A stretch of 64,000 bases of DNA from Dictyostelium discoideum (Eukaryota), in contig CM000154.2 in assembly GCA_000004695.1 (NCBI GenBank), positions 480,001 to 544,000 on the forward strand, in the 5' to 3' direction. Of the stretch, positions 26,343-49,373 are shown piece after piece (positions within the stretch are counted from its first letter, which is position 1; each line of letters begins with the position of its first letter). The notes under the pieces were generated by a model. It did no database searches. It was not told the DNA's origin and worked only from the letters and a program-made list of their open reading frames with translations. The translations under genes were made by a program, and so were the position numbers.

Positions 26343-28648
26343 ATGAAATATTTATTAGTATATTTACACATATTACTATTTTGTTTATTAAAGATCAATA
26401 GCCAAAAGTATTGCACTTATAGTGGTGTTGGAGAAGATTATAATATCAAATTTGATGTCTTACAAACATAGTATGTAATTTTTTTTTTTTTTCTTTCTCT
26501 TCTTTTTTTTTTTTTTTTTTTTTTAAAAAAAAAACCTAATTATTTTTTTTTCTTAAACGTTCAAACAGTGGTGTTGGTTTTCATTACTCATATTTAAGTG
26601 TTATTTTTACAACTTGTAATTATACTATTCCTTGTGGTAGTAATAGTAATAATGTATTGTGTGGATCATATTCAATTGTTCCACGCAAGTATCTTTCATT
26701 GGGATTTGTTAATGGCAGTACACATAGTTATAGCAAAGACGGACTAATGATAACATATATATCACAGGATACAACAAATGATAATGATTGCAAAAGATAT
26801 ACAACAAATGTGATTTTTCAATGTAGACCAGATGGTGATGTATCCGATTCATTAGATGTTGGCATCGACAATATACTTATTGATTCATGTATTGTTGAAT
26901 TCACACTCTCTTCACGTACAGTGTGTCAAACATGTCCAAACTGTTTAAAAACACATCAAACATCATGTAATGTGAAAAGTGGTTGGTGTACTTGTGATGG
27001 TAATACAAAAGGTTTAAATTGTGATCAATTAAATGCAAATATATCATCGGTATTAACACCAACAATTAGTGGTGGTGATGTTATAATGTCTGGTGATTTT
27101 TCAAATATTTATAATATTAGCTCAAGTATTACAATTTCAATTGGTACTTCAATTTGTAATAGTGTTATTTTCTCAAGTAATAAATCACAAATCAAATGTA
27201 CGATAGGTGCAGGTGAAGGTGATCAACAAATTAAATTATCAGATGGAAATGGTGCAACATTAATATATGATGGATTTTATTATAGAGCTCCTTGTTCAGT
27301 CGAATGTTCACCATTTGGTAAATGTAATGATCACGTTGGTAATTGTATTTGTAATGATGTTGCAATTGGTACAGATTGTAAAACTTTAAATTTACAATTA
27401 GATTCAGTAACACCAACATTTGTAACTGGTGGTCAAGTTTATTTAAATGGTAATTTCCTAAATGTCAAAGATCTTAGTCTAACTATTAAAATCGGTGATA
27501 TAGAATGTTCAGATGTTAAATTCAACGATACTAATTTCAAAGTTTTGCAATGTATAATTCGAAAAGGTGAAGGTATTAAAGATATTATAATATCATCAGG
27601 TTTGCTATCATTTTCAAAAGCAAAAGCATTCGAATATCAATACTACAAATGTCCACTCAATTGTTCAACACCAAATGGTACTTGTGATAATAATACTGGT
27701 AATTGTACATGCCATAATGAACATTTTGGTAATTCTTGTGAATTTACTCGATGTCCACTCGATTGTTCGACACCAAATGGTACTTGTGATAATAATACTG
27801 GTAATTGTACATGCCATAATGAACATTTTGGTAATGGTTGTGAATTTACTCGATGTCCACTCAATTGTTCGACACCAAATGGTACTTGTGATAATAATAC
27901 TGGTAATTGTACATGCCATAATGAACATTTTGGTAATGGTTGTGAATTTACTCGATGTCCACTCGATTGTTCGACACCAAATGGTACTTGTGATAATAAT
28001 ACTGGTAATTGTACATGCCATAATGAACATTTTGGTAATGGTTGTGAATTCACTCAATGCCCACTCTATTGTTCAACACCAAATGGTACTTGTGATATTA
28101 ATAGTGGTATTTGTACATGTGATAATGAACATATTGGTAATGGTTGCGAAATTAAATTTATTGAATGTAAACATAAATGTTCAACCAAACATGGAATATG
28201 TGATAATGATAGTGGTAATTGTAAATGTGATACTCAAACAAAAGGATTAACGTGTGAAGAATCAAGATTATTAATTGAATCATTAGACTCAATCAATTCA
28301 AAAGGTGGTACAATAAATATAATTGGTTATTTTGGAAATACAACATCATTATTAACAATTAAAATTGGTGAATCACAATGTAAAAATATCAAAGTATTCA
28401 ATGAAACAACATTAAAATGTGATATTGGTGAAGGTAAAGGTATTCATAATATTACAATCATTGATGATGACCTTTCGTTCACAGCAATCAATAAGTTCCA
28501 ATATCTCGATGAAAAAACAAAAATCTCAAAAATATCGAGAGGTGCAATTGCTGGTATTGTTGTTGGTTGTGTTGTTGCTGTTTCATTAATTGGTTCTATT
28601 GCTTTTTATTATCATCACAAAAATAAAAAGGTTAATCTTTTCTTCTAA
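26343..28648 (+). CDS. Cell-surface protein with tandem EGF-like/Cys-rich repeats, IPT/TIG-like segments and a C-terminal TM anchor; 2 exons at 26343..26470 (signal peptide) and 26569..28648
   Basis: Exon 1 gives MKYLLVYLHILLFCLLKINSQKYCTYSGVGEDYNIKFDVLQT in phase 2 with donor GTATGT at 26471. The TCAAACAG acceptor at 26567/68 continues (Y)GVGFHYSYLSVIFTTCNYTIPCGSNSNNVLCGSYSIVPRKY.... The repeat unit C(P/Q)L(N/D)CSTPNGTCDNNTGNCTCHNEHFGNGCEFTR occurs 5-6 times, and the hydrophobic stretch AIAGIVVGCVVAVSLIGSIAFYY is followed by a basic tail. Track ORF 26657 starts at a TTG. Confidence 0.7.
27650..28057 (+). repeat. Four near-identical (about 97-99%) 102-bp tandem repeats (34 codons each) inside the EGF-like gene, followed by 2 degenerate units to about 28260
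   Basis: Units start at 27650, 27752, 27854 and 27956 and differ by 1-5 nt. The antisense and out-of-frame track ORFs at 27643..28057 and 27675..28250 are reflections of this periodicity. Confidence 0.9.
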
Positions 28649-29378
28649 AAACTAAAATAAAATTTAACCATTATGGTTTTTTATTACAATAATTAAAATT
28701 TCCCAATTATTTTTGATATTTTTCTTTTTTTTTTTTTCTTCCAACTATTGAAAGAGTTATCTAATAATTCAATCTCATTAATTAAAGAATAGAGTCTTAT
28801 TACACATTAATTTTCATTTAATCTATTTTTTTTATTTTTATTTGTTTTTTTAGTTGATTGACCAAAATTCGAACCAAGGTCTGGGATTTCATTGGGAGTG
28901 AGATACAAAAAAAGCTGTGAAAACTTATCCAATTTTTTCCTTTTTTCATTCAATTTTTATAAATGTAAAGATAATTTTCCATTGTCCAATTATCCTTAAA
29001 TTTTTAAAAAAATTATCCGGATGAGGTAAAACACTAAAAAATAGAGTTCCATTTTAGTAAAAAAAAAAAAAAAAAAATTAATTGATATTCTTTATATAAA
29101 AAAAAAAAAATAAAAAAAATGCTCACCTTGATTCTGGCATTAATTTTGGGTTTAAAATCTTCTCCAACACTTCTATAAGCACAATACTTATAAATCCGAC
29201 TATTGGTTGTTAATAAAAAAAATAGTTGTATAAATAAAATAATATTCCATTTTTATTAAGGTGATATTTTATTTTTTTATTTTTGTTGTATTTTTTTTAT
29301 AATTTGATTAAATAAAAAAAAAAAAAAGATTTAAAATAAAAAAAAAATAAAAAAAGATTTAAAATAATTTGCCTCTGG

Positions 29379-29470
29379 ACCTATCAGGAATAATTGAATT
29401 AATTTTTACTAACTTAACATTTTTTAAAAAGATAGAGCTGTTGGGAATAAATTGATTTATTTCGAAAAAT

Positions 29471-29508
<38 letters not shown>

Positions 29509-29645
29509 AAATACAAGATTTAAAACAAAAATTTAAAATAATATTTAAATATTTTTAAAGACCTTTTGTAGAATTATATTTAGTATGTAATTATCGAAAT
29601 ATGAACTTCAAAAATTCATATGAATATCAAAATAATTCACTTTTT
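29379..29645 (+). mobile_element. Copy B of repeat family 2 (5' direct repeat of the composite locus 29.4-31.7 kb)
   Basis: TGGACCTATCAGGAATAATTGAATTAATTTT...(T)38 AATAAAATACAAGATTTAAAACAAAAATTTAAAATAATATTTAAA...AGACCTTTTGTAGAATTATATTTAGTATGTAATTATCGAAATATGAACTTCAAAAA. It aligns with copy C over about 260 bp. Confidence 0.5.
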
Positions 29646-30059
29646 TTTTAAAAAAAAAAAATATTTTAAAAATTCTTTTTTGTGGGGAATAAAAAAAAAA
29701 AAAAAGAAAATATGATTCTGTTCGAAGTTTTCAAAAAGAAGAAAAAAAATAAAATAAAATAAAAAACAATTAAAACTTTTAACCAATCATTTAGATGTAA
29801 GTTGTTTTTTTTAAATAAATAATTTGTGAAAAATAAAAAATTAGGTGTTTTGGATAGTAAAAAAAAATAAAAAAAATAAAAAAAACATGTCGCCCCAAAA
29901 AAAAAAAAAGGGGGAGGGGCAGTAAAAAAGGGGTAGTTTCCCCATACAAATCCAAAACACCTTTTTTTTGACACCTAAATTTTTATTATTCACATTTATC
30001 AATTTTTACCAATTTTTTTCTTTTTTTTTTTTTTTTTTCAGCCATATTGGTTTGTTGGG

Positions 30060-30900
30060 CGTAGTAGAAGTAGTTGTTGTTTTTAATATTAATTATATAT
30101 AAGGTGTTATAGGTTTCATATGAACAGTAAATTTTATATCATAGTTTGGAATACTTTTAATCTTCAAAAAATTAGAACATAAGTATCAGTATTTACTCCA
30201 GCTGCTGTACAACCTGAAAATACTACCAATATCACAAATGTACAACACTAGCAAATACAACATCAACAACAACACCACCACCGCCACTACCACCACCATT
30301 TTACCAAGACACTCAACAACTAATAAATTGGAAACTCAAATACAACCCCCCCCAAATAGATTAGATAATGGGGCTCCAAATACTATATCCACAGCAATTG
30401 GTGGGAATGGCTAACCTCTGTTATTGTTCCAGAAACTAGTTTACCACCAGAGAATTCTGAGTTTGAAACTTGTTAAGAAAGTGAAAAAGGTGGTGCTATG
30501 GTTACTGTTTCCTCTCATAAAGAATTCGATGCTTGATACATGCGCCTTCTCAAGCCCTATTATTCCAATCAATAATTTTGCCGTTGGTGCTTTATTGACC
30601 AGCACTGGTCACTGTAGAATTGCAATGTTGTTGGTTTCTATTACCACTATGGTAATGGAACTCCACTCTAGAGATCAAAGTGGTGATGATAATTTCCTTT
30701 TGATTTCAACTCGTGTATGTGCTGATGAAAAACGTTACCTTTATCCTGGTTGTACCGATGCCATGTTGGTGGTCCGTCGAGGTCAAGTCAAACCATTTAT
30801 ACCATTTTAAATATTGATTTGAATCAAAAATCACCAATTTATTTATTAAGTATTGGTAATTAAATAAAGTAGTAGTAGTAGTTCGAGCGGACCAACAAAT
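30060..30900. other. GC-richer (about 40%) island with no intact ORF on either strand; a candidate degraded mobile-element interior or non-coding locus
   Basis: Composition differs sharply from the surrounding 15-20% GC DNA. The only ORFs are short and in different frames (the longest is 30424..30810, 128 aa, with no recognisable motif). Internal CCCCCCC and CAACAACAACACCACCACCGCCACTACCACCACC tracts are present, and GTAGTAG(A)AGTAGTT-like direct motifs sit near both ends (30058 and 30866). Confidence 0.4.
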
Positions 30901-30904
30901 TTAA

Positions 30905-31078
30905 ATAAAAAAATCCTCTGTGTATCTTTCAAATAATTTTGGTTTTTTTTTTTAATGTTTTTTTTTTTTTATTTTATATGGGACATAATTCTTTAAAATT
31001 TATCAATCTAAATAAACCCAAAATGATTTTTAAATTCACCAATTTTAAAAACTATTAAGATACACAGTGGATTTTTCT
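30905..31078. repeat. Roughly 170-bp element bounded by about 35-bp imperfect terminal inverted repeats (hairpin/MITE-like)
   Basis: The left arm is AAAAAAATCCTCTGTGTATCTTTCAAATAATTTTGGT (30905-30941) and the right arm is ACCAATTTTAAAAACTATTAAGATACACAGTGGATTTTTC (31039-31078). The reverse complement of the right arm, GAAAAATCCACTGTGTATCTTAATAGTTTTTAAAATTGGT, matches at the 14/16 core ATCC(T/A)CTGTGTATCTT. Confidence 0.5.
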
Positions 31079-31425
31079 TTGTAAATAGGAAAAAAAAGTG
31101 ATGACATACAAAGGGAGTAAAAAAAAAAATGGTTTTTAAAAATCAACCTCCAATGAAAGATAAAAGCCAAAAAAAAAAAAAAAAAAAAAAAAATTAAAAG
31201 AATATACTCGTTGTGTGCTTGTCAATAAATTATAAAAAAAAGTGTGTTTTTAGCAATAAAAAAAAAAGAAAATAATAAAAGTTATACAGAAAATAACCAA
31301 TCCAGTTTTTTAAAAAATTATAATTATTGCATTATTATTTATTTTATTTATAATTTTTCCTTTTTTTTTTTTTTTAAAAACTCGCCAACGATCAGTGTCG
31401 CTACAAAATAATAAACTTAAAATTG

Positions 31426-31695
31426 AACCTATCAGTGAATAATTGAATTATTTATAATTAACTCATCATTTTTTTAAAAAATCAAATTATCCCTGAATAA
31501 ATTCAGTTATTTCAAAAAAAGTTTTTTTTTTTTTTTCAATAAAATGCGTGATTTAAAACAAAAATTTTAAATAATATTAAACAATATTAGTTAAGACCTA
31601 TTGTAGAATTAAATTTGGTATGTAGTTATTGAGAAATAGAGAAAATATAAAAAAATGAACTTCGAAAAAAAAAGGAACTTCAAAAAAAAAAAAAC
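31426..31695 (+). mobile_element. Copy C of repeat family 2 (3' direct repeat of the composite locus)
   Basis: TGAACCTATCAGTGAATAATTGAATTATTT...TTATCCCTGAATAAATTCAGTTATTTCAAAAAAAG(T)18 CAATAAAATGCGTGATTTAAAACAAAAATTTTAAATAATATTAAAC...AGACCTATTGTAGAATTAAATTTGGTATGTAGTTATTGAGAAATAG...GAACTTCGAAAAAAAAAGGAACTTCAAAAA. Confidence 0.5.
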
Positions 31696-32194
31696 TACAT
31701 AAAAAATAAATCCTTTTCTGAGTCCTGGTATTTCTGATTTTTTTTTTTGTAAATCATACTTTTATTTTATTTTATTTTTTTTATATTTTTTATTATAATT
31801 GAATAAAAAAAAAAATTTAAAAAAAAAAAAATGAAAATTTTTTTTAGAGAAAAGATTACTCGACCTTTTTTAAAATATGAAGAGTTAATTATAAATAATT
31901 AAATTATCAACTTGTAAAAAATAAAAAAATATAAAAATTTTAAATCAAATTAAATAAATCATAAAAAAATATTATAGGAAAATTTCGCAAAAAGGTTCTT
32001 GATTTTCTGGGTACTTTCAGGCTTTTTTATTCTTTGAAAAAAAAAAAATTAAAAAAAAAAAATTAAAAAAAAAAAAAAGTTTGCAAATATAAAATCAACA
32101 TTTTGGTGCGATAATAAAAAAAAAAATTATAATAATAATTAAATAAATAAATAAATAAAAATAAAAAATATTATTAAAAAAAAAAAAAAAAAAA

Positions 32195-32404
32195 ATGTTT
32201 GATTATTTTTTCGGTAGTAAAACAGAAAACAAAAAATTAAAAGTAAATCAGGTTTTAAAAAAATACAAAGATTTATATGCAATAACAATTGAAAATGTTT
32301 TTACAAAAGAAGAATGTGAAGAATTAATTAGATTATCAGAAGAAAAAGGATATGAACCTGCATTGGTAGTATGTAAAAAATTTAAAATTTTTTATTAAAT
32401 AAAA

Positions 32405-32446
<42 letters not shown>

Positions 32447-32985
32447 CAGAATACCGGAAATGGTCAACAAGAATTAATGACAGATGTAAGAAATAATGAT
32501 AGATGCATAATAGATACAGAAGAATTATCAAATAAAATTTATGAGAGAATTAAGGAATTTATCCCACAAGATTTTAGAGGTCACAAAGTTGTATCATTAA
32601 ATGAAAGATTACGTTTTCTTCGTTATTATCCAGGTCAAGAATTTAAAGCACATTTCGATGGTTCATATGAAAGAACTGAAGGTCCAAAGGCAGGTGAAAG
32701 ATCACATATCACATGTCAATTATATTTAAATGATGTTGAAAAAGGTGGTGAGACAACATTCTTTGTTGGCCCAAATCAAGAAGAAATTAAAGTCAATCCT
32801 TCAACTGGTATGTAGTAAATAATTGTAAAAAAAAAAAAAAAAAAAATTAGAAAAATTAATTATTAATATTTATTTATTATAAAGGAATGATAATTTTATT
32901 TCAACACAGAATTTTACACCAAGGTTCACCAGTAGTTTCTGGTGTAAAATACGTAATTCGTTCTGATGTTATGTATAATAGTTAA
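32195..32985 (+). CDS. 2-oxoglutarate/Fe(II)-dependent oxygenase (prolyl 4-hydroxylase-like, PKHD-type); 3 exons at 32195..32368, 32450..32807 and 32885..32985, about 210 aa
   Basis: Exon 1 ends ..EPALV|GTATGT (phase 0). The (T)40CAG acceptor at 32448/49 continues NTGNGQQELMTDVRNNDRCIID...YPGQEFKAHFDGSY (the HxD iron-binding motif) ...GGETTFFVGPNQEEIKVNPST. The donor G|GTATGT at 32808 and a TTATAAAG acceptor at 32883/84 give GMIILFQHRILHQGSPVVSGVKYVIRSDVMYNS* (the second His and the RxS 2OG-binding motif). Using the later CACAG acceptor gives an immediate stop and loses the conserved His. Confidence 0.75.
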
Positions 32986-33261
32986 AAAAAAAAAAAAAAA
33001 AAAATTATAATAAAAAATAGATATTTTTTTTTTAATGGACCAGTAAAAAATGTGAAAAATGAAAAAAAACAGATATTTTAGAATTTGATTTTTTTTTTTT
33101 TTTTTTTTAATTATTTTATTAATTTTTATTTTTTTATTTTTTTTATTTATTTACAAAATAGTAAAAAAATAAAATAAAAAACATTAATAAATCGAAAATG
33201 GTAACAACAAATATAAATAACAATAAATCAATTAATATAATTAGTAAAGATATAACTTATT

Positions 33262-33312
<51 letters not shown>

Positions 33313-34404
33313 TTTTTTTATTAAATGAAATTAATAATCAACAAGATAGAATAAATCAATTAAGAATCGACGATGAATTTATAAATAACTATCATCACAC
33401 TCACCAAGAAACAATAAATACAAGGGGTAGAAGGTTTTTTAAATTTTTATTAAAGTTTAATAAAAAAAAAGGTTCAAATAGTGATACAATCCAAGTTCAC
33501 TTTTTTACACCTTACTGGTAATTGTTTTTTTTTTTTTGGTACTCATAGTAAAGTGGTCTATTATGCATCTAAGAATATTCTTTGCCTCTCTCTTATTGAA
33601 ACATTAAAAAAAAAAATGTTGGAATCAATTTTGAAATTTCTTTTTTTAAAAAAAAGAAAAAAATATAAAAAAAAAATATTAATAAAATATTGAAAAGGAA
33701 TCCAAAGATATTTTTGATTTTTTGATTTTTTTATATATTTTTTTTTGTTTTTTTTTTGTTTTTGTGTGGAAAAAAAAAGAAGGGTCTTGATGGTTTTTTT
33801 TTTTTTTTTTTTTTTTTTTTTGGTTCATTAAATTCTATTTTTTTTTTTTTTTATATATATATTTAACAAAAACTTTGCAATATGGGTCAATCAAATTCAA
33901 GAAGTATTTATCGAAAAAAATAAATAAAATAAAATAAAATAAAATAAAATAAAATAAAATAAAATAAAATAAAAAAAAATTAAAAAAAATAAAAAAAAAA
34001 AATTATAAAATAAAAAATTTAAATGAAAAAAAAAAAAAAAAATAGCAATCATATAAATTAATAAAAATATAAAAACAATTAATTTAATTTTAACAAACCA
34101 CCCAATTTAGCTATTTATTTAGAACCGGTTGAGAGACCAAACGTAAAGGATTCAGGAAAAACTAATTTCAACTATTAATTCTAAAAGAAATTAAACAAAA
34201 TACAATAAAATCTAATTTTTATTTGTTTCAATTATCATTTTTATTTTAAAAGAACGCAAATGTTTTCGTTTGGAAAAAAAAAATAAAAAAAAAGAAAAAA
34301 AAAAAACAAAAAATAAAAAAATTTTTATTTATTAATATTATTTATTTAGATTACAAAACAAAAATCAAATCAATTATAAACTTTTAATAAAGGTTGATAT
34401 TTAT

Positions 34405-34442
<38 letters not shown>

Positions 34443-34889
34443 AAATATCTTTCAAAGGGAAAATATAAACTTTAAAATAGTATTTATTATAATATTTTTT
34501 AGGATTAAAAAAAAAATCTTGGGATATAATTATTTCCAAATTTCTGTGAAAAATAAAAAAAAAATCTCATCAAAATCATGTATTAATTTTTATAAAGGTT
34601 TATTTTTTTTTTTTTTTTTGTAATTGGAAAAAGAAAAATACCATTGATATTATTAGATATTGTTTTTAACTTTTTAAAATTGGTTTATTAAAAATCTTAT
34701 TTTTTTATTCAAAATTAATTTATTTTAATTTTTTTTTTTTTTTTTTATTTTTCCAAATCAATTTAAAAAAAAAAAAAAAACAAAAAAAAATATTATTAAC
34801 ATTTAATCAAATAAAAACATATTAATATTTTTAATAACATTTAATAAAATAAAAAAGGGAAAATAAAAATTTTTGATAAAATAAAAAAA

Positions 34890-35059
34890 ATGGGTGCCAA
34901 GAGTTCAAAACCAAGTATGAATTAATAGATTTTTTTTTTTTTTTTTTTTTAACCCCAACTAATCTTTTATTTTTTTTTTATCATTTTATAGAATACATAG
35001 TTCAAGGAAGTAACAGTAGTAGTGGCAGAGGAGGTTCACGTTCTACTTTCTATGCATAG
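34890..35059 (+). CDS. Tiny 2-exon ORF (about 30 aa) with an N-myristoylation-type start: MGAKSSKPK|YIVQGSNSSSGRGGSRSTFYA*; exons 34890..34914 and 34992..35059
   Basis: The model reads ATG GGT GCC AAG AGT TCA AAA CCA A|GTATGA, then a 77-nt AT-rich intron containing CTAAT, then TTTTATAG|AA TAC ATA.... The protein starts M-G-x-x-x-S with K at position 7. It is paralogous to the 35311 ORF, sharing AAACCAAGTATG at the donor. It may not be a real gene. Confidence 0.25.
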
Positions 35060-35310
35060 TTGAAAAAAAAAAAAAAAAAAAAAAAAAAAATGTTATTATA
35101 TCCATCTATATGATCAATAAAATCAATCATTTTAAAATGATTTTTTAAAAAAATTTTATTTTATTTTATTTTATTTTATTTTATTTTATTTTATTTTATT
35201 TTATTTTATTTTATTTTATTTTATTTTATTTTCGAATTTTATTGGTAACATTTGGATTTTCAGTTTTTTTTTTTTCAAAAAACCATCACCAAAAAAACAT
35301 AAAACCAATA

Positions 35311-35490
35311 ATGGGTATGTCCGGCAGTTTAAAAAGTTTTAAACCAAGTATGTTGGCAATTATCTGTATGGATTTAGTTTTTTTTTATTAAAAAACATAA
35401 ATAAAAAAACTAACAGATCTCTTTTTAGCACTATATGCTCAAAATAGTAATAACAGAAGTTTTGTTCGTCCAATAACCTTTAATGCTTAA
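35311..35490 (+). CDS. Tiny 2-exon ORF (about 32 aa) with an N-myristoylation-type start: MGMSGSLKSFKPT|LYAQNSNNRSFVRPITFNA*; exons 35311..35347 and 35429..35490
   Basis: The model reads ...TTT AAA CCA A|GTATGT, then an 81-nt intron containing AAAAACTAACAG (a TACTAAC-like branch point), then CTCTTTTTAG|CA CTA TAT.... Its organisation is the same as the 34890 ORF, and a third unspliced MGQSNSRSIYRKK* ORF lies at 33883..33924. Confidence 0.25.
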
Positions 35491-35702
35491 ATAAAAAAAA
35501 ATTAAAAATTAAAAATTCAATGTATGCATTACACAATAATAAATCAAAAAGATATTTTTAGAACAAAACTCCCGCTCTTTTATTTTTTTTTTTTATTTTT
35601 TTATTTTTAATTTTTTATTTTTTTTTTATTTTTTATTTTTTCAATTTTATGAAACCAACAACAACAACAAATAATATTTCAATATAAATATAAATAAATA
35701 CA

Positions 35703-35945
35703 ATGAATTCAAATAATGATAGTAATATATTATTTGTTAACCAAGTTGGAGAACTATTGACAAGGTATAATGAACAAATTGGTCAATTAAATAAAGGTTT
35801 ATTAGATTACTATTATAATAATGGATTTGATAAAAAGAATTTAAATAGTATTGAAAAAGAATTGGGTATTGTACAAGTATGATACCTTTATTTATTTATT
35901 TATTTATTTATTATTATTGTTTATTTAATATATATAAAGTTCCAA

Positions 35946-35985
<40 letters not shown>

Positions 35986-36321
35986 AAATTAGGATTGCTT
36001 TTCAAAAATGAAATGGAATTATATAGAAAATGGTAATAAACAATTATTTATAAAAGATATTATATCAGAGACACAAATTACAACACCAAGTCAACATAAT
36101 GTACATAGTTTAGAAGATCAATTAAAAGAGATTAAAAATGATTTCAATAATAATAAAGAGAAAACTAAAAAAGCATTTGAACATATCATTGAGATCATAA
36201 ATAGATTCACTGGTATGAATGAAAAATATCAAAAAGAGAAACAAAATTTACAATCTTCAATTAGTAAAGCAAATGAATTAATTGAAAATATATTAAAATT
36301 AGTTAATAATAGTAATAATAA

Positions 36322-36352
<31 letters not shown>

Positions 36353-36565
36353 AAATCTGGTAATAATAATATTATTAATTATAGTAATAATTTAAATTCA
36401 TCAATTCAATGGTACAAAAAATATAATAAATTTTTAGAATCAATGGGTGGATTATACATTATACCAAATAATGATAATCAGATAATAAAAAATTCAAAAA
36501 TTGAATTTGAATTAAAAATTGATACAACTAAAATAATACATAAATTAATAATAGAATTAGATGAA

Positions 36566-36650
<85 letters not shown>

Positions 36651-37132
36651 GTGATAATAATAATAGTGATAATGAAAAAGTTTTAAATAATTTACCAATT
36701 ATAAAAGGTTATAATTTAATACCAAATATTAATGAACTGAATAAAGTTTTACAAGATACAATATCAGATTATTCAAATGAACCCTTGGAATCATTTAGCG
36801 ATATTGGCTATTTAGTTGGTGAATTTAAGAATATAATTTCAAATTATTATTTAATGGAAGCAGAAATTCAAGATTTATCATTACGTTTTAAAATTAAACG
36901 TCAAACATTGAAAAATTATGGCGAACTTTCAATTCAATTACCAAATGGTTTCACTTGTAATCTTTATTTAGATTCTGATTATCCAAAATATTCAAATATT
37001 GAAATTCAATCAATTCAAAAACCAAATTCTAATGAATTAGTAACAAATTTATCATTTATTCAAAAAAATATAAATGAAAATAAATGGAGTTTATTACAAT
37101 TAATTGAAGAAATTGATTATTATTTAAAATAA
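35703..37132 (+). CDS. Hypothetical protein with poly-Asn tracts and a conserved-looking C-terminal domain (about 437 aa); 2 exons at 35703..35876 and 35993..37132
   Basis: Exon 1 gives MNSNNDSNILFVNQVGELLTRYNEQIGQLNKGLLDYYYNNGFDKKNLNSIEKELGIVQ|GTATGA in phase 0. The (A)nTTTAAATTAG acceptor at 35991/92 is in frame with track ORF 36008 (DCFSKMKWNYIENGNKQLF...). There is no recognisable domain. Confidence 0.55.
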
Positions 37133-37220
37133 TAAAATTTTTTAAAAAAAAATAAAATAAAAAGTTATGATTTTTTATAAATATATATATTTATATATTC
37201 TAATTTTAAAATTGAAAAAT

Positions 37221-37251
<31 letters not shown>

Positions 37252-37252
37252 A

Positions 37253-37754
37253 TTATTTATTTATAAATTTCCAAAATTTTTTAGTATTATTATTTGTAAT
37301 TGTAATGATTTTAATTTGTTGTAAAATTGAATGATGATCGAAAATTTCGAAATTAAAAGGTAGATTATTCCAATTCTTTATAATTATTAATTCCAAAGGT
37401 GGTAAAACATTTGAAGCAATTGGTTGTTTATATGATTTATCAAATGTTAAATATTTTAATGACTTTGGAAGTGAATCACTTTCTAAAATTTGGTCAAACT
37501 TTTCACCAAATTCAATATAACAAAGATTATTAGGTAACATATTCTTTGTTAATTTTTCATTATAATAATATCCAAATATTAATACTTTTAAATTTTTTGG
37601 AAAACTATTTGGTAATAATGGTTGATTAAATTTATGACTCATTATCAATGTTTCAATTGTTGAAGGTAGTTCATTTAAATTGATTGGTTCATTAAAATTT
37701 GGACTAAATGATAACTTTTTTAAATTACAAATAATGTTAACACCATTACCATAT

Positions 37755-37812
<58 letters not shown>

Positions 37813-39814
37813 ATTGATTTATTTTTGGTAAATCTCTTAATGATCCTAAATATTTAAATGATTTAACATTTGATGGTATATTGAAAGGATAGAATAGAGT
37901 TGATGTATTGATTTCTAATTTTTTAATACTTGATGGTAAGAAATCACTAGAGACTAATAATTGTTTTGGACAATTTCTAAGTTTTAAAACTTGTGTTGAA
38001 GGTGGAATACAATTAATTGGTAACTCTTGATTATAATGATAACCAAATTCAAGTTTTATTAAAGATTGAGGTAAAACACCAACTTCAATTGGTTTATTGA
38101 AATTCCAACCTAATATAAGTGATTTCAATGATTTTGGAAGAACATCATGACCAATGGTTTGATTAAAAAGGTAACCAAATTGTAAATGTTCTAATGATTG
38201 AGGTAATGATCCAATCTCTAATTGATAATCGAATCTATATGAAAGTTTTAAAATTTTTAAACCTTCGGGTAACTGATTTGGTTCAATCTTTTGATTAAAA
38301 TATAAACCCATAGTTAATGAAGTACATGATTGTGGTATACAACCAATTCTTAAACATTGGTCGAATGAGTCACCAAATATAATTGATGTCAATGATGATG
38401 GGAATGAATTTATTACTAATGGTTTATTAAATTTATTACCAAGTTCAATTTCTTCTACACTATTTGGTATTACACTCTTTCTAATTAATGAATCGAAATT
38501 ATCATGAAAAATGATTCTCTTTACACCCATTGGTATCATATTTGGTTTAATCTCTCTATAATTAAAATAAAGTTCTTCTTCTTCTTTATAATAATTTTCA
38601 GATGATTTAGAAATATCAAGTTGAGGTCCTTGAATTGCTAAACCATCAATTATTACCCAACAATTTGAATTTGGTATTGATCCTTGAACTAATAATTTTT
38701 CAAATGGTGATGAATTAAAACAATAGTCCAATAAACTACCACCACCACTACCACCACTACCACCACTACCACCACCAATATTATTTATATTTTTTGTAGG
38801 GCTACATTGTTTATAATCATTATTATTATTATTATTATTACTTGAGAAAAATGATGATGATAATAAATTTTGATCTTTAAATTCCAATTTCTCTAATGTT
38901 ATTGGTAAAACATTTGGTTTTATAATTTTATTGAAATTTGTACCTAATTTTAAAGATTTTAAATTATTTGTAATCCAATCTTTAGTTAACTCTTGATTAA
39001 ATGATTTACCAAATTGAATATGTTCAATAGAGTTTGGTAAACCATAAATAGGTTTATTAAAATCATCACCAAATATTAATGATGTAACAGAGTTTGGTAT
39101 TGAATTTGATAATATCGGTTGATTAAATTTACCAATGAATTGAATTTCTTTCAATGAATTACCAACTAAACAATTTGTAGGTATTGGATAATTGAATCTA
39201 CCTGATAATACTAATTTTTCAATTGATGATGAATTTAATGATAAATTATTAAAGCTATTACTATTAAATTCTGATGAACAACCTAATTTAAATATTAAAG
39301 TTTTCAATCCTTTTGGTAAATAACTAGATGATAATGTACCAATAAATTTACATCCAAATATTAATGTTTCTACACTATCTGGTATGGAAATTATATTTGG
39401 TTCATCATTTAAAGATAAATTTAAATTCTTTATATTATTTGGTAAATTTTCTTTTTCAATTTTATTATTATAATTATTGTTATCATAATTATTATTATTA
39501 TTGTTATTATTATTGGTATTATTATTACTATTATTATTATTATTAGGATTATAATTTGAATTTATAACATTATTAAATAAATTAAAATTATTTATAAAAT
39601 CATTATTGTGAAAATGATAATTATAAAAATTACTATATTCTTGATTTGATATTAACCTATGTAAATTATTTAATAGTCTTATAAATTTGAAAAGTTGTTT
39701 ATTAATGAAAATATTCCTAAATGCTTTATAAAATAATTTGCTCATATTTTCATCATAGTTTATTGTTTGGTCATTTTCTTTGTTGTCTATTTTTAATTTT
39801 TTGTGTAATGACAT
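37253..39814 (-). CDS. FNIP-repeat-containing protein, a Dictyostelium-specific repeat family; single exon
   Basis: Many tandem copies of the roughly 22-aa FNIP unit are present (...LP.SL..L.FG..FNQPI...., for example FGYHYNQELPINCIPPS, LGWNFNKPIEVGVLPQSL, FGEKFDQILESDSLPKSLKYLTFDKSYKQPI). The gene also carries poly-Asn and a GGSGGSGGSGGG linker. Confidence 0.8.
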
Positions 39815-40444
39815 ATTTTTTTTTTTTTTCTTTTTTGTAAAATAAAGAAAATGACTTTATTTAATTTTTGGTTTTTAATTATGAATGGATAATAAAAAAA
39901 AAAAAAAAAAAACAAAAAAAAAAAAATGTAGTGGCGAAAATAATAATTTTATGAAGATATATCTTTTTTTATATTTATGTGGTTGTAATTTCATATGTTT
40001 GAAATTTTTAATTTTTTAATTTTTTTTTGTATTTTTATTTTTTTTTTGTATTTTTTTATTTTTTTTGTATTTTTTTTTTAAAATCTAATTAAATAATCTT
40101 TTTTAAGTATTAAAAAAAAGATTTTTTTTTCACAGTTAAAATTTTTTATTTATTTTTTAAAAAAACAAAAAAAAAAAAAAAAAAAAAAAAAAAATAATTT
40201 ATTTTTTAATAAAACAAAAAAAAAAAAAAAAAAACTAAAACGTTCTAAATTCACTTTTTTATTTATTTAATATGGTGGATGAAATTAAATTCTTAATGTC
40301 AAATTGGATGTTCGAAAAAATAAAATTTAAAAAAAAACAAATAAAATAATCCAAATTTAATCATTTGTTTTTTTGATTTTTATTTGATTTGATTTTATTT
40401 TATTTTATTTTATTTTATTTTATTTTATTTTATTTTATTTTATT

Positions 40445-43064
40445 TTATTTTATTTTATTGTTACTATAATCAGTTTGAGATTTAATTAATTTATTAAATT
40501 TGGAATTTGGAATATTCATTAAGTTTGAAGGAGTATCGAATTCTATTAATTGACCACTATCTATTACTGCTATTTTATTACAATCAATAATTGTTTCAAG
40601 TCTATGAGCAATTGTTAAGGTTGTACAATCTTTAAAGTTTTCTTGAATTGTTTGTTTGATTAATTGAGCTGTATGGTAATCAATTGAACTTGTGGCTTCG
40701 TCCATTAAAATGATTTTAAAATTTTTTAAAATCGTTCTACAAAGACATAATAATTGTTTTTGACCATATGAGAAACCATTATCACCATTCTCTTGTAGTG
40801 CTGTCTCTAATTTTAATGGCATTGAATTGATTGCATCCTTTAATTTAACTTTTTCAATTGATTCCCAAATTTCAAAATCAGTGAATTCATTGAATGGGTC
40901 AATGTTTGAACGAATTGTACCTGTGAAAATGAATGGATCTTGAGGTACAATACCTATTGATGATCTTAGTTTTTGTAATTGAACCTTTGATATATCAATA
41001 CCATCAATTAATATTAAACCTTTTGAACATTCTACCATTCTAAATAATGATGAAGCGATAGTTGTTTTACCGGCGCCAGTTCTACCAACTATTCCAATCT
41101 TTTCGCTGGATTGAACTTTAAATGATAAATCTTTTAAATTTGGTTCTGAATTTGGTCGATATTTAATTTCCACATTTTTAAACTCTATAATACCTTTATT
41201 TGGCCAATTAACTAAATCACCATTTGAAATAGTTTTAAGACCATCACTATCAACTTGATTAGTACCAGTGGATATGAGTTTATTTCCTTCTTTTGGAATT
41301 TCAATATAACTTTGAATTCTTTGGAATGAGTTCATTTTAACTTCTAATTCAACGATTCTACGAACTCCCCAACTTAGATAACCATTTAAACTCAAAGCAG
41401 TTGTGACTGATAACGCAGCGAGTCCATTGTTTGATGTGAATAATGCAGCAGCTAATGAAGTAAAGAATACCATTATACAACCCATAACTTCTAATCTCAT
41501 AGATATCCATCTATGAACTGCGAAACTATAAAAGATACAACCTAAATTAATATTGATATTATCAAACATTTCTTTAATAAATCTAGATTCTTGTTTATAA
41601 GTTCTAATTGTAAGTAAACCATTATAGCACTCTTGAAGTAATGAAAATACTGGCGATAATGTAATAGATTCCCATCTATTTAATTCTCTTGCTGATGGTC
41701 TATATAATCTTTGATAAATATAATAAATTATAAATAACAAAGTTAAAGGTATAATAATAATTGGAATAATGAAAACTATTGAAATTAAACCAATTGTTAA
41801 TTCAGAGAAACATATTGAAACCTCTGATAATAGATCCAACATATGAATATCAATATCACTAGTATCTTTACTGAATCTATTTAAAATTCTACCTGATGGA
41901 TTTGTATCAAAGAATCTACATGATGCATATGTTACTGATTTTAATAGTGCTGAATGTAAATTTTTACCAATTCCAAATGTTATACGACTTAATGAATATG
42001 TACGTATCATTAATAACGAAACAAAAATACCAATAATTAATAAATAGTAACCAATGTAAAATGAATCACTTTTGCCTTCAATTGATCTTTCTGTCCAAAT
42101 TGCTAACCAAAAATCTGAAACTTTATAAACGGCTTGACCAATGAAAAATAATGAAATAGTGATGAAAAGTGTTACACCTGATGTTCCATAACTAAAGTAT
42201 TTTTTATAAACATTAAATTCTACCTCTCCCTCATTTTTATCTTCTTTAACTAATAATTTTGCTTTCTCGATTAAATTTGGATCATTCTTATCACTAATAA
42301 CATTATTAACATCAATAATTTCATTTTCGATTTCAATTTCATTTTTTATTAACTCTTCACTATCAGTTTCATTTTCAACATTTTTTTTAATTTCTTTTGT
42401 TTTTAAAATTGATTTAAAATCAATACCTTGAATACAATGATCGAATAAATGTGATGCGACTTCAGGATCTACAGCTGATAAAGGTTCATCAAAAATAAAA
42501 CAATCTGAATTTGCATAAAGTGCACGTGCTAATGATATACGCTGTTTTTGACCTCCTGAAAGGTTAATACCACGTTCTCCAATCTCTGTTAAATCTAATC
42601 CTGCTAAATTTACTATATCTTTTGTTAATGCTGTTGATTCAATAACTTTTTTATATCTTTCTATATCAAATTCATTTCCAAATAGAATATTCTCTCTTAA
42701 TGATGCACTTAATAAAAATGGTTGTTGACTTGTAAATGAAATATTATTTGGTACACCACTAACACTACCATTTAATTTATAAATTTCACCAATTAAACCA
42801 CAAACTAAACTTGTTTTACCGCTACCAACAACACCACAAATCATAGTTAATTTACCTTTTGGTACTATTAAATTAATATCATTTAATTTATAATCAAAAT
42901 TTTCATTTATTTTAATATTTTCTTCATTTTCCTCTTCCTCTTCTTCTTCATTTTCTTCCTCATCTTCGCTTTGATTAAATTCAAATAAATTATTATTTTC
43001 AGGTTCATTCCATTGAAATGTACAATTTTCAATTATAATATCATTATCATCATTATTGTTATTA

Positions 43065-43099
<35 letters not shown>

Positions 43100-44477
43100 G
43101 AAGTTAATATTTTGATTATTTTCTTTTGATTTTAAAGATTCAGAAGATTTTAAAAAATTTTGAATTCTTTTGACTGATGGCATTAAACCAATAGCTTTAT
43201 AAATATCTTCAGGTAAATAAATTAAGGGTAATTTTAAATTTGCAAAAATGGTCATTGCTGTGAAAGTTACATCTAAACTCATTGTATTACCGGTTAATGA
43301 ATAAGTTGCAAATGTTGATACTAATACTAAGGTTGCATTGGTTTCAATCATCATATGATCGAAAATCCAAAATAAAACTCTAAGAAATAAAAATTTTAAT
43401 TCTTGTTTTCTTTGTTCTTCAATTTTATTTATAAATAAATTCTCCCATGCATACATTTTAAATGGTCTAATATTGGTTATTAATTCACTGGTTAAATTAG
43501 TTCTTGAATCTGAATATTCCAATGATTTCTCTAAATAATTACTAGATTTTGTACACAACATGGTGTTGATTGGTAATGCAATTACCATTACACCAAATCC
43601 AACTAAACCACTTGGACCAACTACATAACATAATAATCCCAATAATATAAGAATTTGAAGTGTATGTGATACAATATCTAAATAATAAGTCCAAAAGAAT
43701 TCTGATATATTTTCAACATCAATTGACATAATATTCATAATTTTTCCAGATCTATATTTCTTTTTTGATACATTTGATAGTTTTAATGTTTTTTCAAATA
43801 TCTTTGCTGTTAATGCGCCTCTAACATCAAAACTATTTTTCATACCAAACCAATAAAATAATTCTTGTGAAATTGATTGTCCTAATATACTGATACATAA
43901 TAAACAACATAATAAAATTCCTTTTAAAATGGATTTTTCATTATCATTATCTGTTGATATATAATTTATTAAACTTTTATAAAAAAAAAAAAAAAAGTTA
44001 GTTCTTTTTTAATTTAAAAATAAATAAATATTAGATTAAATTAAATACATACAATTTTAAACAAATTGGTGATAAAAATATAAAAATTGTAATAAATATA
44101 TTTGAAATTAATGCATATTTATTTTTTGGTAAAAAATTTTTATAAATATGTTTTATTAATGCATATTTTGAACCATTTGAAAAATTGATATCATCCAATA
44201 GTTTTGATGTGGTTTGGACTTTATTTAACTCTGGTAAATCATAAATATCGTTCATTTCTAATGATTCTTTGAAATAACCTTTCATTATTAATTTCGTTAC
44301 CCAATTAAAACTAATTTTTGACCATTTTGATGAATTATCTTCTGGACATGCTTTATAAAAATTATTTGTTGAATTTGATGGTGAAGATGATGGTTCATTT
44401 TCATCTTCATCATCAAGCTTTTCATACAATAATGAAAATTTTTTTTTTATTTTTGTTTCGAAACTATTTATAAACAT
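40445..44477 (-). CDS. abcC: ABC transporter, ABCC/MRP subfamily (TMD-NBD-TMD-NBD), tandem copy 1; 2 exons at 44477..44053 and 43973..40445, about 1317 aa. It carries a 45-codon in-frame deletion in NBD1
   Basis: Exon 1 (MFINSFETKIKKKFSLLYEKLDDEDENEPSS...FLSPICLK, phase 2) has donor TT|GTATGT. The acceptor ATAAAAG|T at 43974/75 restores ..LINYISTDNDNEKSILKGILLCCLLC...GMKNSFDVRGALTAKIFEKTL.... Walker A (GVVGSGKTS), signature (LSGGQKQRISLARALY) and Walker B (CFIFDEP) are present, and NBD2 has GRTGAGKTT, FSYGQKQLLCLCRTILK and ILMDEATSSID. Relative to copy 2, 135 bp are missing at 42427|42428 (protein ...DHCIQG^IDFKSI...). Confidence 0.85.
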
Positions 44478-45230: not shown

Positions 45231-48200
45231 TTATTTGTTTATTATTGTTTTTTCATTGTTATTATAATCAGTTTGAGATTTAATTAATTTATTAAATTTG
45301 GAATTTGGAATATTCATTAAGTTTGAAGGAGTATCGAATTCTATTAATTGACCACTATCTATTACTGCTATTTTATTACAATCAATAATTGTTTCAAGTC
45401 TGTGAGCAATTGTTAAGGTTGTACAATCTTTAAAGTTTTCTTGAATTGTTTGTTTGATTAATTGAGCTGTATGGTAATCAATTGAACTTGTGGCTTCGTC
45501 CATTAAAATGATTTTAAAATTTTTTAAAATCGTTCTACAAAGGCATAATAATTGTTTTTGACCATATGAGAAACCATTATCACCATTCTCTTGTAGTGCT
45601 GTCTCTAATTTTAATGGCATTGAATTGATTGCATCCTTTAATTTAACTTTTTCAACTGATTCCCAAATTTCAAAATCAGTGAATTCATTGAATGGGTCAA
45701 TGTTTGAACGAATTGTACCTGTGAAAATGAATGGATCTTGAGGTACAATACCTATTGATGATCTTAGTTTTTGTAATTGAACCTTTGATATATCAATACC
45801 ATCAATTAATATTAAACCTTTTGAACATTCTACCATTCTAAATAATGATGAAGCGATAGTTGTTTTACCGGCACCAGTTCTACCAACTATTCCAATCTTT
45901 TCGCTGGATTGAACTTTAAATGATAAATCTTTTAAATTTGGTTCTGAATTTGGTCGATATTTAATTTCCACATTTTTAAACTCTATAATACCTTTATTTG
46001 GCCAATTAACTAAATCAGCATCCTTAATTGTATGATTATCAACTTCATTTGAGTTTGTTGATACGAGTTTATTTCCTTCTTTTGGAATTTCAATATAACT
46101 TTGAATTCTTTGGAATGAGTTCATTTTAACTTCTAAGTCAACGATTCTACGGATTCCCCAACTTAGATAACCATTTAAACTCAAAGCAGTTGTGACTGAT
46201 AACGCAGCGAGTCCATTGTTTGAAATGAATAATGTTGCAATTAATGAGGTAAAAAATACCATTATCCAACCCATAACTTCCAATCTCATAGAAACCCATC
46301 TATGAACTGCGAAACTATAAAAAAAACAACCTAAATTAATATTGATATTGTCAAACATTTCTTTAATAAATCTAGATTCTTGTTTATAAGTTCTAATTGT
46401 AAGTAAACCATTATAGCACTCTTGAAGTAATGAAAAAATTGGGCTAACTGTAATAGATTCCCATCTATTTAATTCTCTTGCTGATGGTCTATATAATCTT
46501 TGAAGTATATAGTAGGCAATGGATAAAATAATTAATGGAATTACCATAATTGGAATAATGAAAACAATAGAAATTAAACCAATTGTTAATTCAGAGAAAC
46601 ACATTGAAACCTCGGTTAATATATCAAACATATGAATATCAATATCACTAGTATCTTTACTGAATCTATTTAAAATTCTACCTGATGGATTTGTATCAAA
46701 GAATCTACATGATGCATATGTTACTGATTTTAATAGTGCTGAATGTAAATTTTTACCAACGTTGAATGTAATACGACACAATAGTAAAATACGTATCATC
46801 AAGATTACAACAAAAGTACCAAAAATTAATAAATAGTAACCAATGTAAAATGAATCACTTTTGCCTTCAATTGATCTTTCTGTCCAAATTGTTAACCAAA
46901 AATCTGAAACTTTAAAAATGGCTTGACCAACGAAAAATAATGAAATAGTGATGAAAAGTGTTACACCTGATGATCCATAACTAAAGTATTTTTTATAAAC
47001 ATTAAATTCTACCTCTCCCTCATTTTTATCTTCTTTAACTAATAATTTTGCTTTCTCGATTAAATTTGGATCATTCTTATCACTAATAGCATTATTAACA
47101 TCAATAATTTCATTTTCGATTTCAATTTCATTTTTTATTAACTCTTCACTATCAGTTTCATTTTCAACATTTTTTTTAATTTCTTTTGTTTTTAAAATTG
47201 ATTTAAAATCAATACCTTTTTCATTTAATTCTTGATATGTACCTTGAATTAATTGACCATTCGAATTTAAAACTATAATATGATCTGCATATGGAATGAA
47301 TTGAAGTTGATGAGTTACTAAAATTCGTGTTTTATTTCTCATTAATTCTCCTTGAATACAATGATCGAATAAATGTGATGCGACTTCAGGATCTACAGCT
47401 GATAAAGGTTCATCAAAAATAAAACAATCTGAATTTGCATAAAGTGCACGTGCTAATGATATACGCTGTTTTTGACCTCCTGAAAGGTTAATACCACGTT
47501 CTCCAATCTCTGTTAAATCCAATCCTGCTAAATTTACTATATCTTTTGTTAATGCTGTTGATTCAATAACTTTTTTATATCTTTCTATATCAAATTCATT
47601 TCCAAATAGAATATTCTCTCTTAATGATGCACTTAATAAAAATGGTTGTTGACTTGTAAATGAAATATTATTTGGTACACCACTAACACTACCATTTAAT
47701 TTATAAATTTCACCAATTAAACCAAAAATTAAACTTGTTTTACCACTACCAACAACACCACAAATCATAGTTAATTTACCTTTTGGTACTATTAAATTAA
47801 TATCCTTTAATTTATAATTAAATTCTTCATTATCATTTTCTTTTTTATTAATTGATTCATCTTGATTTTCTTCTTCTTCATTGTCACCATAATTTAATTC
47901 AAATATATTATTATTTTCAGGTTCATTCCATTGAAATGTACAATTTTCAACTATAATATCATTATCTTGGCCATGTTGATTATTATTTTCTTTTGTTGTT
48001 GTTATTTTTTGATTTTCATTTTTAAAATTTTTATTATATTTTAAAGATTCAGAAGATTTTAAAAAGTTTTGAACCCTTTTGACTGATGGTATTAAACCAA
48101 TAGCTTTAAAAATATCATAAGGTAGACGAATTAAAGGCACTTCTAATTTTGAAAATATTGTCATTGCTGTGAAAGTTACATCTAAACTCATTGTATTACC

Positions 48201-49373
48201 GTTTAATGAATAAGTTGCAAATGTTGATACTAATACTAAGGTTGCATTGGTTTCAATCATCATATGATCAAGTATTGAGTAAAAAATACGTAGGAATATA
48301 TTCTTTAATTCTTGTTTTCTTTGTCCATCAATTTTATTTATAAAGAAATTCTCCCATGCATACATTTTAAATGGTCTAATATTGGTTATTAATTCACTGG
48401 TTAAATTAGTTCTTGAATCTGAATATTCCAATGATTTCTCTAAATAATTACTAGATTTTGCGCATAACATTGCATTGATTGGTAATGCAATTACCATTAC
48501 ACCAAATCCAACTAAACCACTTGGACCAACTACATAACATAATAATCCCACTAAACTTAATATTTGGATGAAATGGGACACTATATTAATATGATGTGTC
48601 CAAAAGTATTCAGATATGTTTGCAACATCAATTGACATAATATTCATAATTTTTCCAGACTTGTATTCCTTTCTTGATGCATTTGATAATTTTAATGTTT
48701 TTTCAAATATCTTTGCTGCTAATGCACCTCTAACATCAAATCCATTTTTAATACCAAACCAATAAAATAATTCTTGTGAAATTGATTGTCCTAAAACACA
48801 TAAACATAATAAACAACATAATAAAATTCCTTTTAAAATGGATTTTTCATTTTCATCTTGTATTGAAATATAATTTATTAAACTTTATTTTTTTTTTTTG
48901 AAATAAAATAAAATCAATTAATAAAATTGGAAATAATTGGAAAATAAATAAACTATATAATATACTTACAATTTTAAACAAATTGGTGATAAAAATGTAA
49001 AAATTATTATAAATAAATTTGAAACTAAAGCATATTTATTTTTTGGTAAAAATTTTTTATAAATATGTTTTATTAATGTATAATTAGAATTATTTGATAA
49101 ATCTATATCTTCCAATAGTTTTGATGTGGTTTGGACTTTATTTAACTCTGGTAAATCATAAATATCGTTCATTTCTAATGACTCTTTTAAATAACCTTTC
49201 ATTATTAATTTCGTTACCCAATTAAAACTAATTTTTGACCATTTTGATGAATTATCTTCTGGACATGTTTTATAAAAATTATTTGTTGAATTTGATGATG
49301 GTTCATTTTCATCTTCATTATCTTTTAGTTTTTCATAGGACGAAAAAAACTTTTTTAAAATTTTAGTGAACAT
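45231..49373 (-). CDS. abcC: ABC transporter, ABCC/MRP subfamily, tandem copy 2 (intact NBD1); 2 exons at 49373..48970 and 48882..45231, about 1351 aa
   Basis: The true ATG is MFTKILKKFFSSYEKL at 49373, and the track start at 49421 is translated poly-A leader. The donor TT|GTAAGT at 48969 and acceptor (A)12TAAAG|T at 48883/84 restore ..LINYISIQDENEKSILKGILLCC.... NBD1 contains ...CFIFDEPLSAVDPEVASHLFDHCIQGELMRNKTRILVTHQLQFIPYADHIIVLNSNGQLIQGTYQELNEKGIDFKSI, including the H-loop His. The 3' 1.3 kb is nearly identical to copy 1. Confidence 0.85.

Follow-up and report, generated by a model that had tools for sequence, protein, structure and literature searches.

Three tandem two-exon candidate micro-genes, which we call A, B and C, sit on the forward strand of Dictyostelium discoideum AX4 chromosome 5 between DDB_G0287673 and DDB_G0287675. 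The sequence analyzed (the window) is a 64,000-nt stretch corresponding to chr5:480001-544000, its offset of 480000 being fixed by the coordinates of these two flanking genes. Published tables place DDB_G0287673 at chr5:513198-513521 and DDB_G0287675 at chr5:515703-517132, the latter coming next after the former (Rosengarten et al. 2017, PMC5295588). Both entries match the window, where we find a 107-aa open reading frame (ORF; 33198-33521) and a two-exon Sos7-like gene (35703-37132). The original prediction, made from the letters of this stretch, described the interval as lacking a conventional gene and its small ORFs as invisible to standard annotation. This proved correct: no annotated gene occupies the interval, and no calls are made at the micro-gene positions in the 2025 annotation of an AX4-like assembly (L007) or in those of D. 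dimigraforme (L006), D. citrinum (L008) and D. cf. discoideum (L011).

Gene A is transcribed and spliced. Strand-specific, rRNA-depleted RNA-seq of AX4 development yielded DDB_G3973405, an intergenic two-exon "long non-coding RNA" (lncRNA) with exons at chr5:513843-513903 and 514111-514208 (Rosengarten et al. 2017, File S4, PMC5295588). In the window, exon 1 (33843..33903, + strand) consists of a 39-nt 5' leader and the coding sequence (CDS) 33882-33903, encoding MGQSNSR plus 1 nt. A 207-nt phase-1 intron follows (33904..34110, GTATTT...TTTAG; RNA-seq junction 33903^34111), and exon 2 (34111..34208) carries the CDS to a TAA at 34176-34178 and a 3' untranslated region (UTR) with AATAAA at 34204. 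The donor of the published model is exactly the predicted gene A donor and its acceptor is in frame, giving the 29-aa peptide MGQSNSRTIYLEPVERPNVKDSGKTNFNY, which ends TNFNY. Two in-frame AGs lie 12 nt apart at this acceptor, the second at 34122, and both are kept in all five species compared below. Use of the downstream acceptor (34123, 25 aa) was dropped because the RNA-seq supports the upstream one at 34111. The original prediction had noticed three MGxxxS starts, all of which are present, with the first ATG at 33882 rather than 33883; it recognized splicing in B and C and missed that A is spliced too.

The gene A intron contains an (AAAAT)n microsatellite, and a Tandem Repeats Finder array (33917-34044) takes up most of its length. 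The intron is 207 nt in AX4 versus 72-124 nt in the other species, which makes the microsatellite an expansion of the AX4 lineage. A perfect 16-copy (ATTTT)n array, the reverse complement of this repeat, lies between B and C (35153-35232), and similar arrays occur near 40.4 kb (~40368-40463).

Genes B and C, both on the + strand, have the layout proposed for them: the junctions 34914/34992 and 35347/35429, with introns of 77 and 81 nt, are confirmed in the sequence, and translation runs in frame past each intron into peptides of 30 and 32 aa. Gene B starts with an exon 1 CDS at 34890..34914 (MGAKSSKP plus 1 nt; donor AACCAA/GTATGA). Its predicted intron (34915..34991) is in phase 1, has 14% GC, runs GTATGA...TATAG and closes at the acceptor TTTTATAG; the exon 2 CDS (34992..35059) ends in TAG and completes the peptide MGAKSSKPKYIVQGSNSSSGRGGSRSTFYA. 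In gene C, the exon 1 CDS (35311..35347) encodes MGMSGSLKSFKP plus 1 nt, has the donor AACCAA/GTATGT and is 12 nt longer, through an insertion, than in its orthologues (MGAKSSKP). The predicted phase-1 intron (35348..35428, GTATGT...TTTTAG) has a CTAAC at 35410, 18 nt before the acceptor, and the exon 2 CDS (35429..35490) ends in TAA, giving the peptide MGMSGSLKSFKPTLYAQNSNNRSFVRPITFNA, with AATAAA at 35538. An alternative gene C acceptor, which would shorten the intron to 69 nt, was dropped because its AG comes immediately after the branch-like CTAAC.

In each of A, B and C, AATAAA occurs 26-57 nt past the stop codon, and in A-type and B-type genes it is embedded in a motif conserved across species, ATCAATAAAAT. 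The B-type genes have a conserved 3' UTR element on the + strand, at 35088..35126 in AX4 (ends approximate), of the form ATGG[CT]ATTATATCC...TATAATCAATAAAAT, with AATAAA at 35116. It follows an A-run, includes the poly(A) signal and is more conserved than the surrounding 3' flank in an alignment of six B/B0 genes, the orthologous positions being those in D. dimigraforme, D. citrinum, D. firmibasis (L009) and D. cf. discoideum.

The window has ~22% GC and poly-Asn coding tracts, and chance ORFs with chance splice-like motifs are one explanation to consider in such DNA, where GTATG, CTAAC and T-rich AG sites are common genome-wide. The sequence AAACCAAGTATG shared by B and C at the donor is real; the GTATG donor within it is ordinary, and is also used by the 2-oxoglutarate (2OG) oxygenase and Sos7-like genes nearby. 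The original prediction had argued against chance from the paralogy at the splice donor and the conserved exon-intron layout; the distribution of start motifs tells against it as well. Among 59 ATGGGN in the 64-kb window (both strands), three fit the N-myristoylation pattern G-{EDRKHPFYW}-x2-[ST]-{P}; these are A, B and C, within 1.4 kb of each other. In ~140 kb of control loci, MGxxx[ST][KR] gave one chance match. With the exact RNA-seq junction of gene A and the persistence of the family in five genomes, a chance origin is vanishingly improbable.

We compared loci fetched around orthologues of the flanking genes and found 20 copies in five genomes, three to six per genome. AX4 and D. dimigraforme have A, B and C; D. 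citrinum has A, B0, B and C, with E and D on the minus strand; D. firmibasis has A, B0 and D; and D. cf. discoideum has A, B, C, E and D. Orthologues of gene B are thus found in D. cf. discoideum, D. citrinum and D. dimigraforme, and B0 copies in D. citrinum and D. firmibasis. Every one of the 20 copies keeps the ATG, the GT..AG boundaries, a phase-1 intron and the stop. The intron is preceded by 22 nt of CDS in A, D and E, by 25 nt in B, B0 and C and by 37 nt in AX4 copy C, which places it after codon 7, 8 or 12. GC content is 0.31-0.44 in the CDS and 0.06-0.22 in the introns of 18 copies, with 0.27-0.35 in two D-type introns. One of these, in D. cf. discoideum (L011 14200-14400, minus strand), contains a long (CT)n tract, which raises both its GC and its length (226 nt, GC 0.35, versus 103-117 nt in D. 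citrinum and D. firmibasis). Sequence comparison suggests that the family, with its types A, B/B0, C, D and E, is restricted to the lineage of D. discoideum, D. citrinum, D. dimigraforme and D. firmibasis.

The pattern of change in these copies is that of protein-coding sequence. Mean orthologue identity is 0.88 in exon 1 and 0.78 in exon 2, compared with 0.585 in introns and 0.60 and 0.62 in the 100-nt flanks. Exon indels are all multiples of three, and intron lengths vary freely from 72 to 226 nt. Pooled Nei-Gojobori counts give a pS of 0.34 and a pN of 0.14, values that are descriptive because the sequences are short and the pairs non-independent; between AX4 and D. cf. discoideum, gene A differs by four synonymous and no nonsynonymous changes. 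The substitution, indel and conservation figures agree in direction and, together with an ORF intact in all 20 copies, indicate purifying selection on the peptide sequence. The earlier proposal of a paralogous family of tiny spliced genes is upheld by the same data. In our view it is highly probable that the three loci are genuine micro-genes that code for protein and are under selection.

These figures bear directly on whether the loci could be non-coding RNA genes whose ORFs are incidental. Gene A stands among the 621 intergenic lncRNAs of the AX4 catalogue, which reports ORFs only when they reach at least 150 bp (Rosengarten et al. 2017, PMC5295588). An ORF of about 90 nt would go unnoticed below this floor, and it is because of the floor that gene A carries a non-coding label. 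An RNA gene would not be expected to accumulate more synonymous than nonsynonymous change, to confine exon indels to multiples of three, to keep ATG, stop and frame across an intron in 20 of 20 copies, or to lose conservation at the exon borders. Gene A keeps a 29-codon ORF across its intron in five species, at odds with the absence of conserved coding potential that defines an lncRNA. Scans of the whole window for tRNAs and Rfam families gave no match, and a permissive Rfam scan of 33500-35700 returned nothing at E<=1. The three spliced transcripts fold no better than their dinucleotide shuffles (z of -0.3, +1.0 and +1.1). Non-coding RNA genes are therefore a quite unlikely explanation, despite the catalogue entry and a literature search that turned up no ribosome-profiling or peptide data for Dictyostelium.

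A different concern is that the units are not independent, being upstream ORFs (uORFs), as the original prediction had allowed, or leader exons of the downstream gene, or else 3' exons of DDB_G0287673. The uORF version fails on several counts: gene A was modelled as a transcript of its own, no copy shares its stop or AATAAA with another, the downstream gene varies among species, and the paralogues D and E lie on the opposite strand. Some observations favor fusion to the upstream gene. The D. firmibasis annotation extends the DDB_G0287673 orthologue through two introns into a 123-aa model that ends at the gene A stop, and we could rebuild this model from the 107-aa gene orthologue and the two exons of gene A, using the A donor and an upstream acceptor. 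The abundance of gene A also correlates with that of DDB_G0287673 (0.58), whose stop overlaps a GTAA donor-like site. However, the AG that this arrangement needs 4 nt before the gene A ATG is absent from AX4, D. cf. discoideum, D. citrinum and D. dimigraforme, and the AX4 transcript model begins 39 nt before the ATG. The catalogue admitted only models that no tiling path connects to a neighbour (Rosengarten et al. 2017, PMC5295588), and for this reason we count gene A as an independent unit. Overall, dependence on a neighbouring gene is very unlikely, and read-through or fusion transcripts of the 107-aa gene may occur in some species. The conserved donor-like sequence over the DDB_G0287673 stop is TGGTAATT (33513-33525).

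The peptides themselves suggest a function. Aligned, the 20 copies agree without exception at just four positions, M1, G2, S6 and a Phe at -3 counted from the C-terminus, and conservation is higher at the ends than in the middle. Position 3 holds Q, A or M, and S6 is followed by K or R in 19 of the 20, the exception being a Leu in AX4 copy C. All 20 conform to PROSITE PS00008-type rules for N-myristoyltransferase (NMT), by which Gly comes right after the initiator Met, charged or aromatic residues and Pro are excluded at residue 3, residue 6 has to be small or Ser/Thr, and Pro is barred from residue 7. The N-termini (GQSNSR, GAKSSK, GARSSK, GQSSSK, GQTSSR and GMSGSL) resemble those of good NMT substrates such as c-Src, MARCKS and HIV-1 Gag. 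No Cys that could take palmitate lies near the N-terminus, and membrane binding would therefore depend on the myristate and basic residues. The remainder is rich in Gly, Ser, Asn and Arg, probably disordered, and ends in [KR]-x(1-3)-[TN]-F-x-[AYVC].

From these features we infer the following mechanism. The three AX4 micro-genes, independently transcribed, and the other family members would each produce an mRNA of ~160-250 nt and a peptide of 27-32 residues, arranged as M-G-[QAM]-x-x-S-[KR], a Gly/Ser/Asn/Arg-rich middle and [KR]-x(1-3)-T/N-F-x-[AYVC]-COOH. The initiator Met would be taken off and Gly2 acylated by NMT. The myristate and the adjacent Lys/Arg, in an arrangement like that of the SH4 region of Src or the N-terminus of MARCKS, would then hold the peptide at the cytosolic face of a membrane, where the conserved C-terminal Phe motif would be displayed as a docking or phosphorylation site (R-x-T-F). 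We conjecture that the C-terminus acts as a basophilic-kinase site (R-x-T-Phe), a hydrophobic C-terminal ligand, or both. Myristoylation is suggested by the invariant motif, and sequence is likewise the source of what we propose on translation and lipidation, on binding to membranes and on what the C-terminus does. The joint claim, that A, B and C are coding micro-genes and also give rise to N-myristoylated, membrane-anchored peptides, seems to us somewhat more probable than its opposite.

Several observations weigh against this account, in addition to the descriptive nature of the substitution counts and the fused D. firmibasis model. Neither B nor C is listed in the AX4 lncRNA catalogue, which covers growth and 24 h of development; at their two junctions, for which the original prediction had called for an RNA-seq check, no transcript evidence was found, in contrast to the gene A junction. 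Transcription of B and C is a prediction, and they may be weakly expressed or active only under other conditions. In AX4 copy C, dN/dS is ~1 in comparison with two orthologues and no basic residue follows S6; this copy may be under relaxed constraint. No family members were present at the loci examined in D. purpureum (L010) and P. violaceum (L012), whose whole genomes were not scanned. Finally, peptides of ~30 residues are barely longer than the ribosomal exit tunnel, so that Met removal and myristoylation would take place after release rather than co-translationally.

Conserved ends around a variable core could also mark precursors of processed, exported signal peptides, similar to ribosomally synthesized and post-translationally modified peptides (RiPPs) or acylated signals, with the flanks serving as recognition sequences. 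The neighbouring enzymes might then tailor the peptides, or acylation of the N-terminus might suffice to export them with no need for a signal peptide. The family is tandem and multi-copy (three to six per genome), its peptides are cationic with an R-x-T site, a Lys-Pro at the exon junction is invariant in B and C types, and in four genomes the cluster lies between 2OG-Fe(II) oxygenase and class I/II aminotransferase genes. Yet the Lys-Pro is missing from A, D and E, the peptides have no signal peptide or known product, and the enzyme linkage is lost in AX4 on the aminotransferase side and in two other 'D. discoideum' assemblies on the oxygenase side. The invariant G2 and S6 are exactly what NMT requires and are not typical of a leader. 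We judge the precursor explanation unlikely. A bolder variant, in which lipidated, cationic, phosphorylatable peptides of this family carry signals from cell to cell during the social cycle of the D. discoideum clade, is highly improbable. Such signals would be released non-classically, through an SH4-dependent route, or be carried out on vesicles. Dictyostelium development involves some peptide activities to which the literature we found assigns no gene, such as SDF-1, a factor that binds cation exchangers. If the variant were true, it would add a class of genetically encoded acyl-peptide signals in a eukaryote.

The membrane-anchor interpretation can be set against several known systems. Chicken c-Src begins MGSSKSKPK and MARCKS has GAQFSK. 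The family shares with them M-G-x-x-x-S-K followed by Lys/Pro/Lys (here MGAKSSKPK), and no homology extends beyond the motif. Src-family kinases continue from SH4 into unique, SH3, SH2 and kinase regions, whereas these peptides stop at 27-32 residues with no Pfam domain; the anchor is nearly the whole protein, with ~20 disordered residues after it and no folded domain. Micropeptides encoded by lncRNAs or small ORFs (smORFs), of the tarsal-less/pri, sarcolipin or myoregulin type, are likewise very short ORFs in non-coding or unannotated transcripts, found through amino-acid conservation and occurring as families of several copies. In contrast to those, the genes described here are monocistronic, have an intron within a ~90-nt CDS, encode a predicted lipid anchor instead of a transmembrane helix and are confined to a few Dictyostelium species. 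Leishmania HASPB and SMP-1 are also small, N-terminally acylated (as predicted here), lineage-specific members of tandem families targeted by an SH4-like N-terminus, but are several times longer, are dually acylated or have a folded core, and show no sequence similarity. The Amanita MSDIN precursors of fungal RiPPs are similar in size (~30-35 residues), in copy number, in having conserved ends and a variable middle, and in the Pro at the boundary; here, unlike there, no processing enzyme is linked, no product is known and the N-terminus is an NMT motif.

Database searches returned no relatives. Pfam gave no match to five of the peptides or to the 107-aa neighbour, and PDB sequences gave none to peptide B. 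A contiguous 30-aa translation over gene B exon 2 had no match among 1.84 billion representative proteins. Exact-sequence look-up in a 15-billion-protein collection reported the peptides absent, which is weak evidence because the same look-up missed the 107-aa protein (33198-33518), although an identical product is annotated on L007 in that collection. The observation on this look-up covers 33198-33518 and, on the minus strand, 37256-39814. The strings MGAKSSKP, MGQSNSR, MGQSSSK and MGARSSKP were not found in the literature, and our literature search found no publication on Dictyostelium smORFs, ribosome profiling or the myristoylome.

Conserved micropeptide genes among lncRNAs are known already, as are lipid-plus-basic anchors. 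As far as the literature we found shows, the family, an intron-containing 90-nt CDS and an "anchor-only" architecture are undescribed. A well-annotated model genome thus still conceals a conserved gene family in "empty" intergenic DNA, and at least one of the lncRNAs catalogued in Dictyostelium is very probably the mRNA of a micropeptide. If myristoylated, the peptides would constitute a near-minimal natural membrane anchor, in which a lipid and a basic patch are joined to a 20-residue tail bearing a single conserved motif, and a tractable system for the role of a free SH4-like anchor in the cell. Their signature can be searched for elsewhere: a 22-25-nt exon 1 (MG..S[KR]), a phase-1 intron and an exon 2 ending F-x-[AYVC]-stop. 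Copy numbers of three to six in closely related species, together with rearrangement breakpoints, offer a view of micro-gene birth, duplication and loss.

These breakpoints delimit a 2.5-kb block containing DDB_G0287673 and the micro-genes, at window ~33019 and ~35545, as seen in comparison with loci L001-L006, L008, L009 and L011. To the left is the three-exon 2OG-Fe(II) oxygenase gene (32195-32985), whose product is identical to DDB_G0287671 (XP_637136.1 / Q54K28). The cluster adjoins the same oxygenase gene in D. cf. discoideum, D. citrinum, D. dimigraforme and D. firmibasis, and the order in the four genomes is oxygenase, 107-aa gene, A/B/C, E/D (minus strand) and class I/II aminotransferase. 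DDB_G0287673 (+ strand, 107 aa, poly-Asn, without a Pfam domain) is the constant upstream neighbour of the cluster in all five genomes that carry it, with homology seen in D. dimigraforme. To the right of 35545, AX4 matches the Sos7-like locus of other assemblies, and the equivalent sequence in the other species has the minus-strand paralogues E and D and then the aminotransferase gene. The independent L007 assembly is 99.76% identical over window 27649-42996, the junction at 35545 included. The annotation on which Rosengarten et al. (2017) relied has no gene between the lncRNA DDB_G3973405 and DDB_G0287675, the downstream flank of the cluster.

The AX4 block adjoins the Sos7-like gene, next to which an R3H gene is found elsewhere. 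The family has no member at the Sos7-side loci of three genomes (L001-L003), nor at the oxygenase locus in either of two divergent 'D. discoideum' assemblies (L004, L005). Two assemblies labelled D. discoideum, GCA_054859355 and GCA_054859385, reach only 88-95% identity to AX4 in this region; in both, a PA14 gene comes after the oxygenase gene, and the match to the window stops at 33019.

Farther along the window, two adjacent minus-strand ORFs of ~1130 aa each (40445-43843 and 45231-48647) show 80-86% DNA identity to two tandem D. firmibasis ABC-transporter genes, with mutual cross-matches. This ABC-transporter-like pair is a tandem duplicate that predates the species split.

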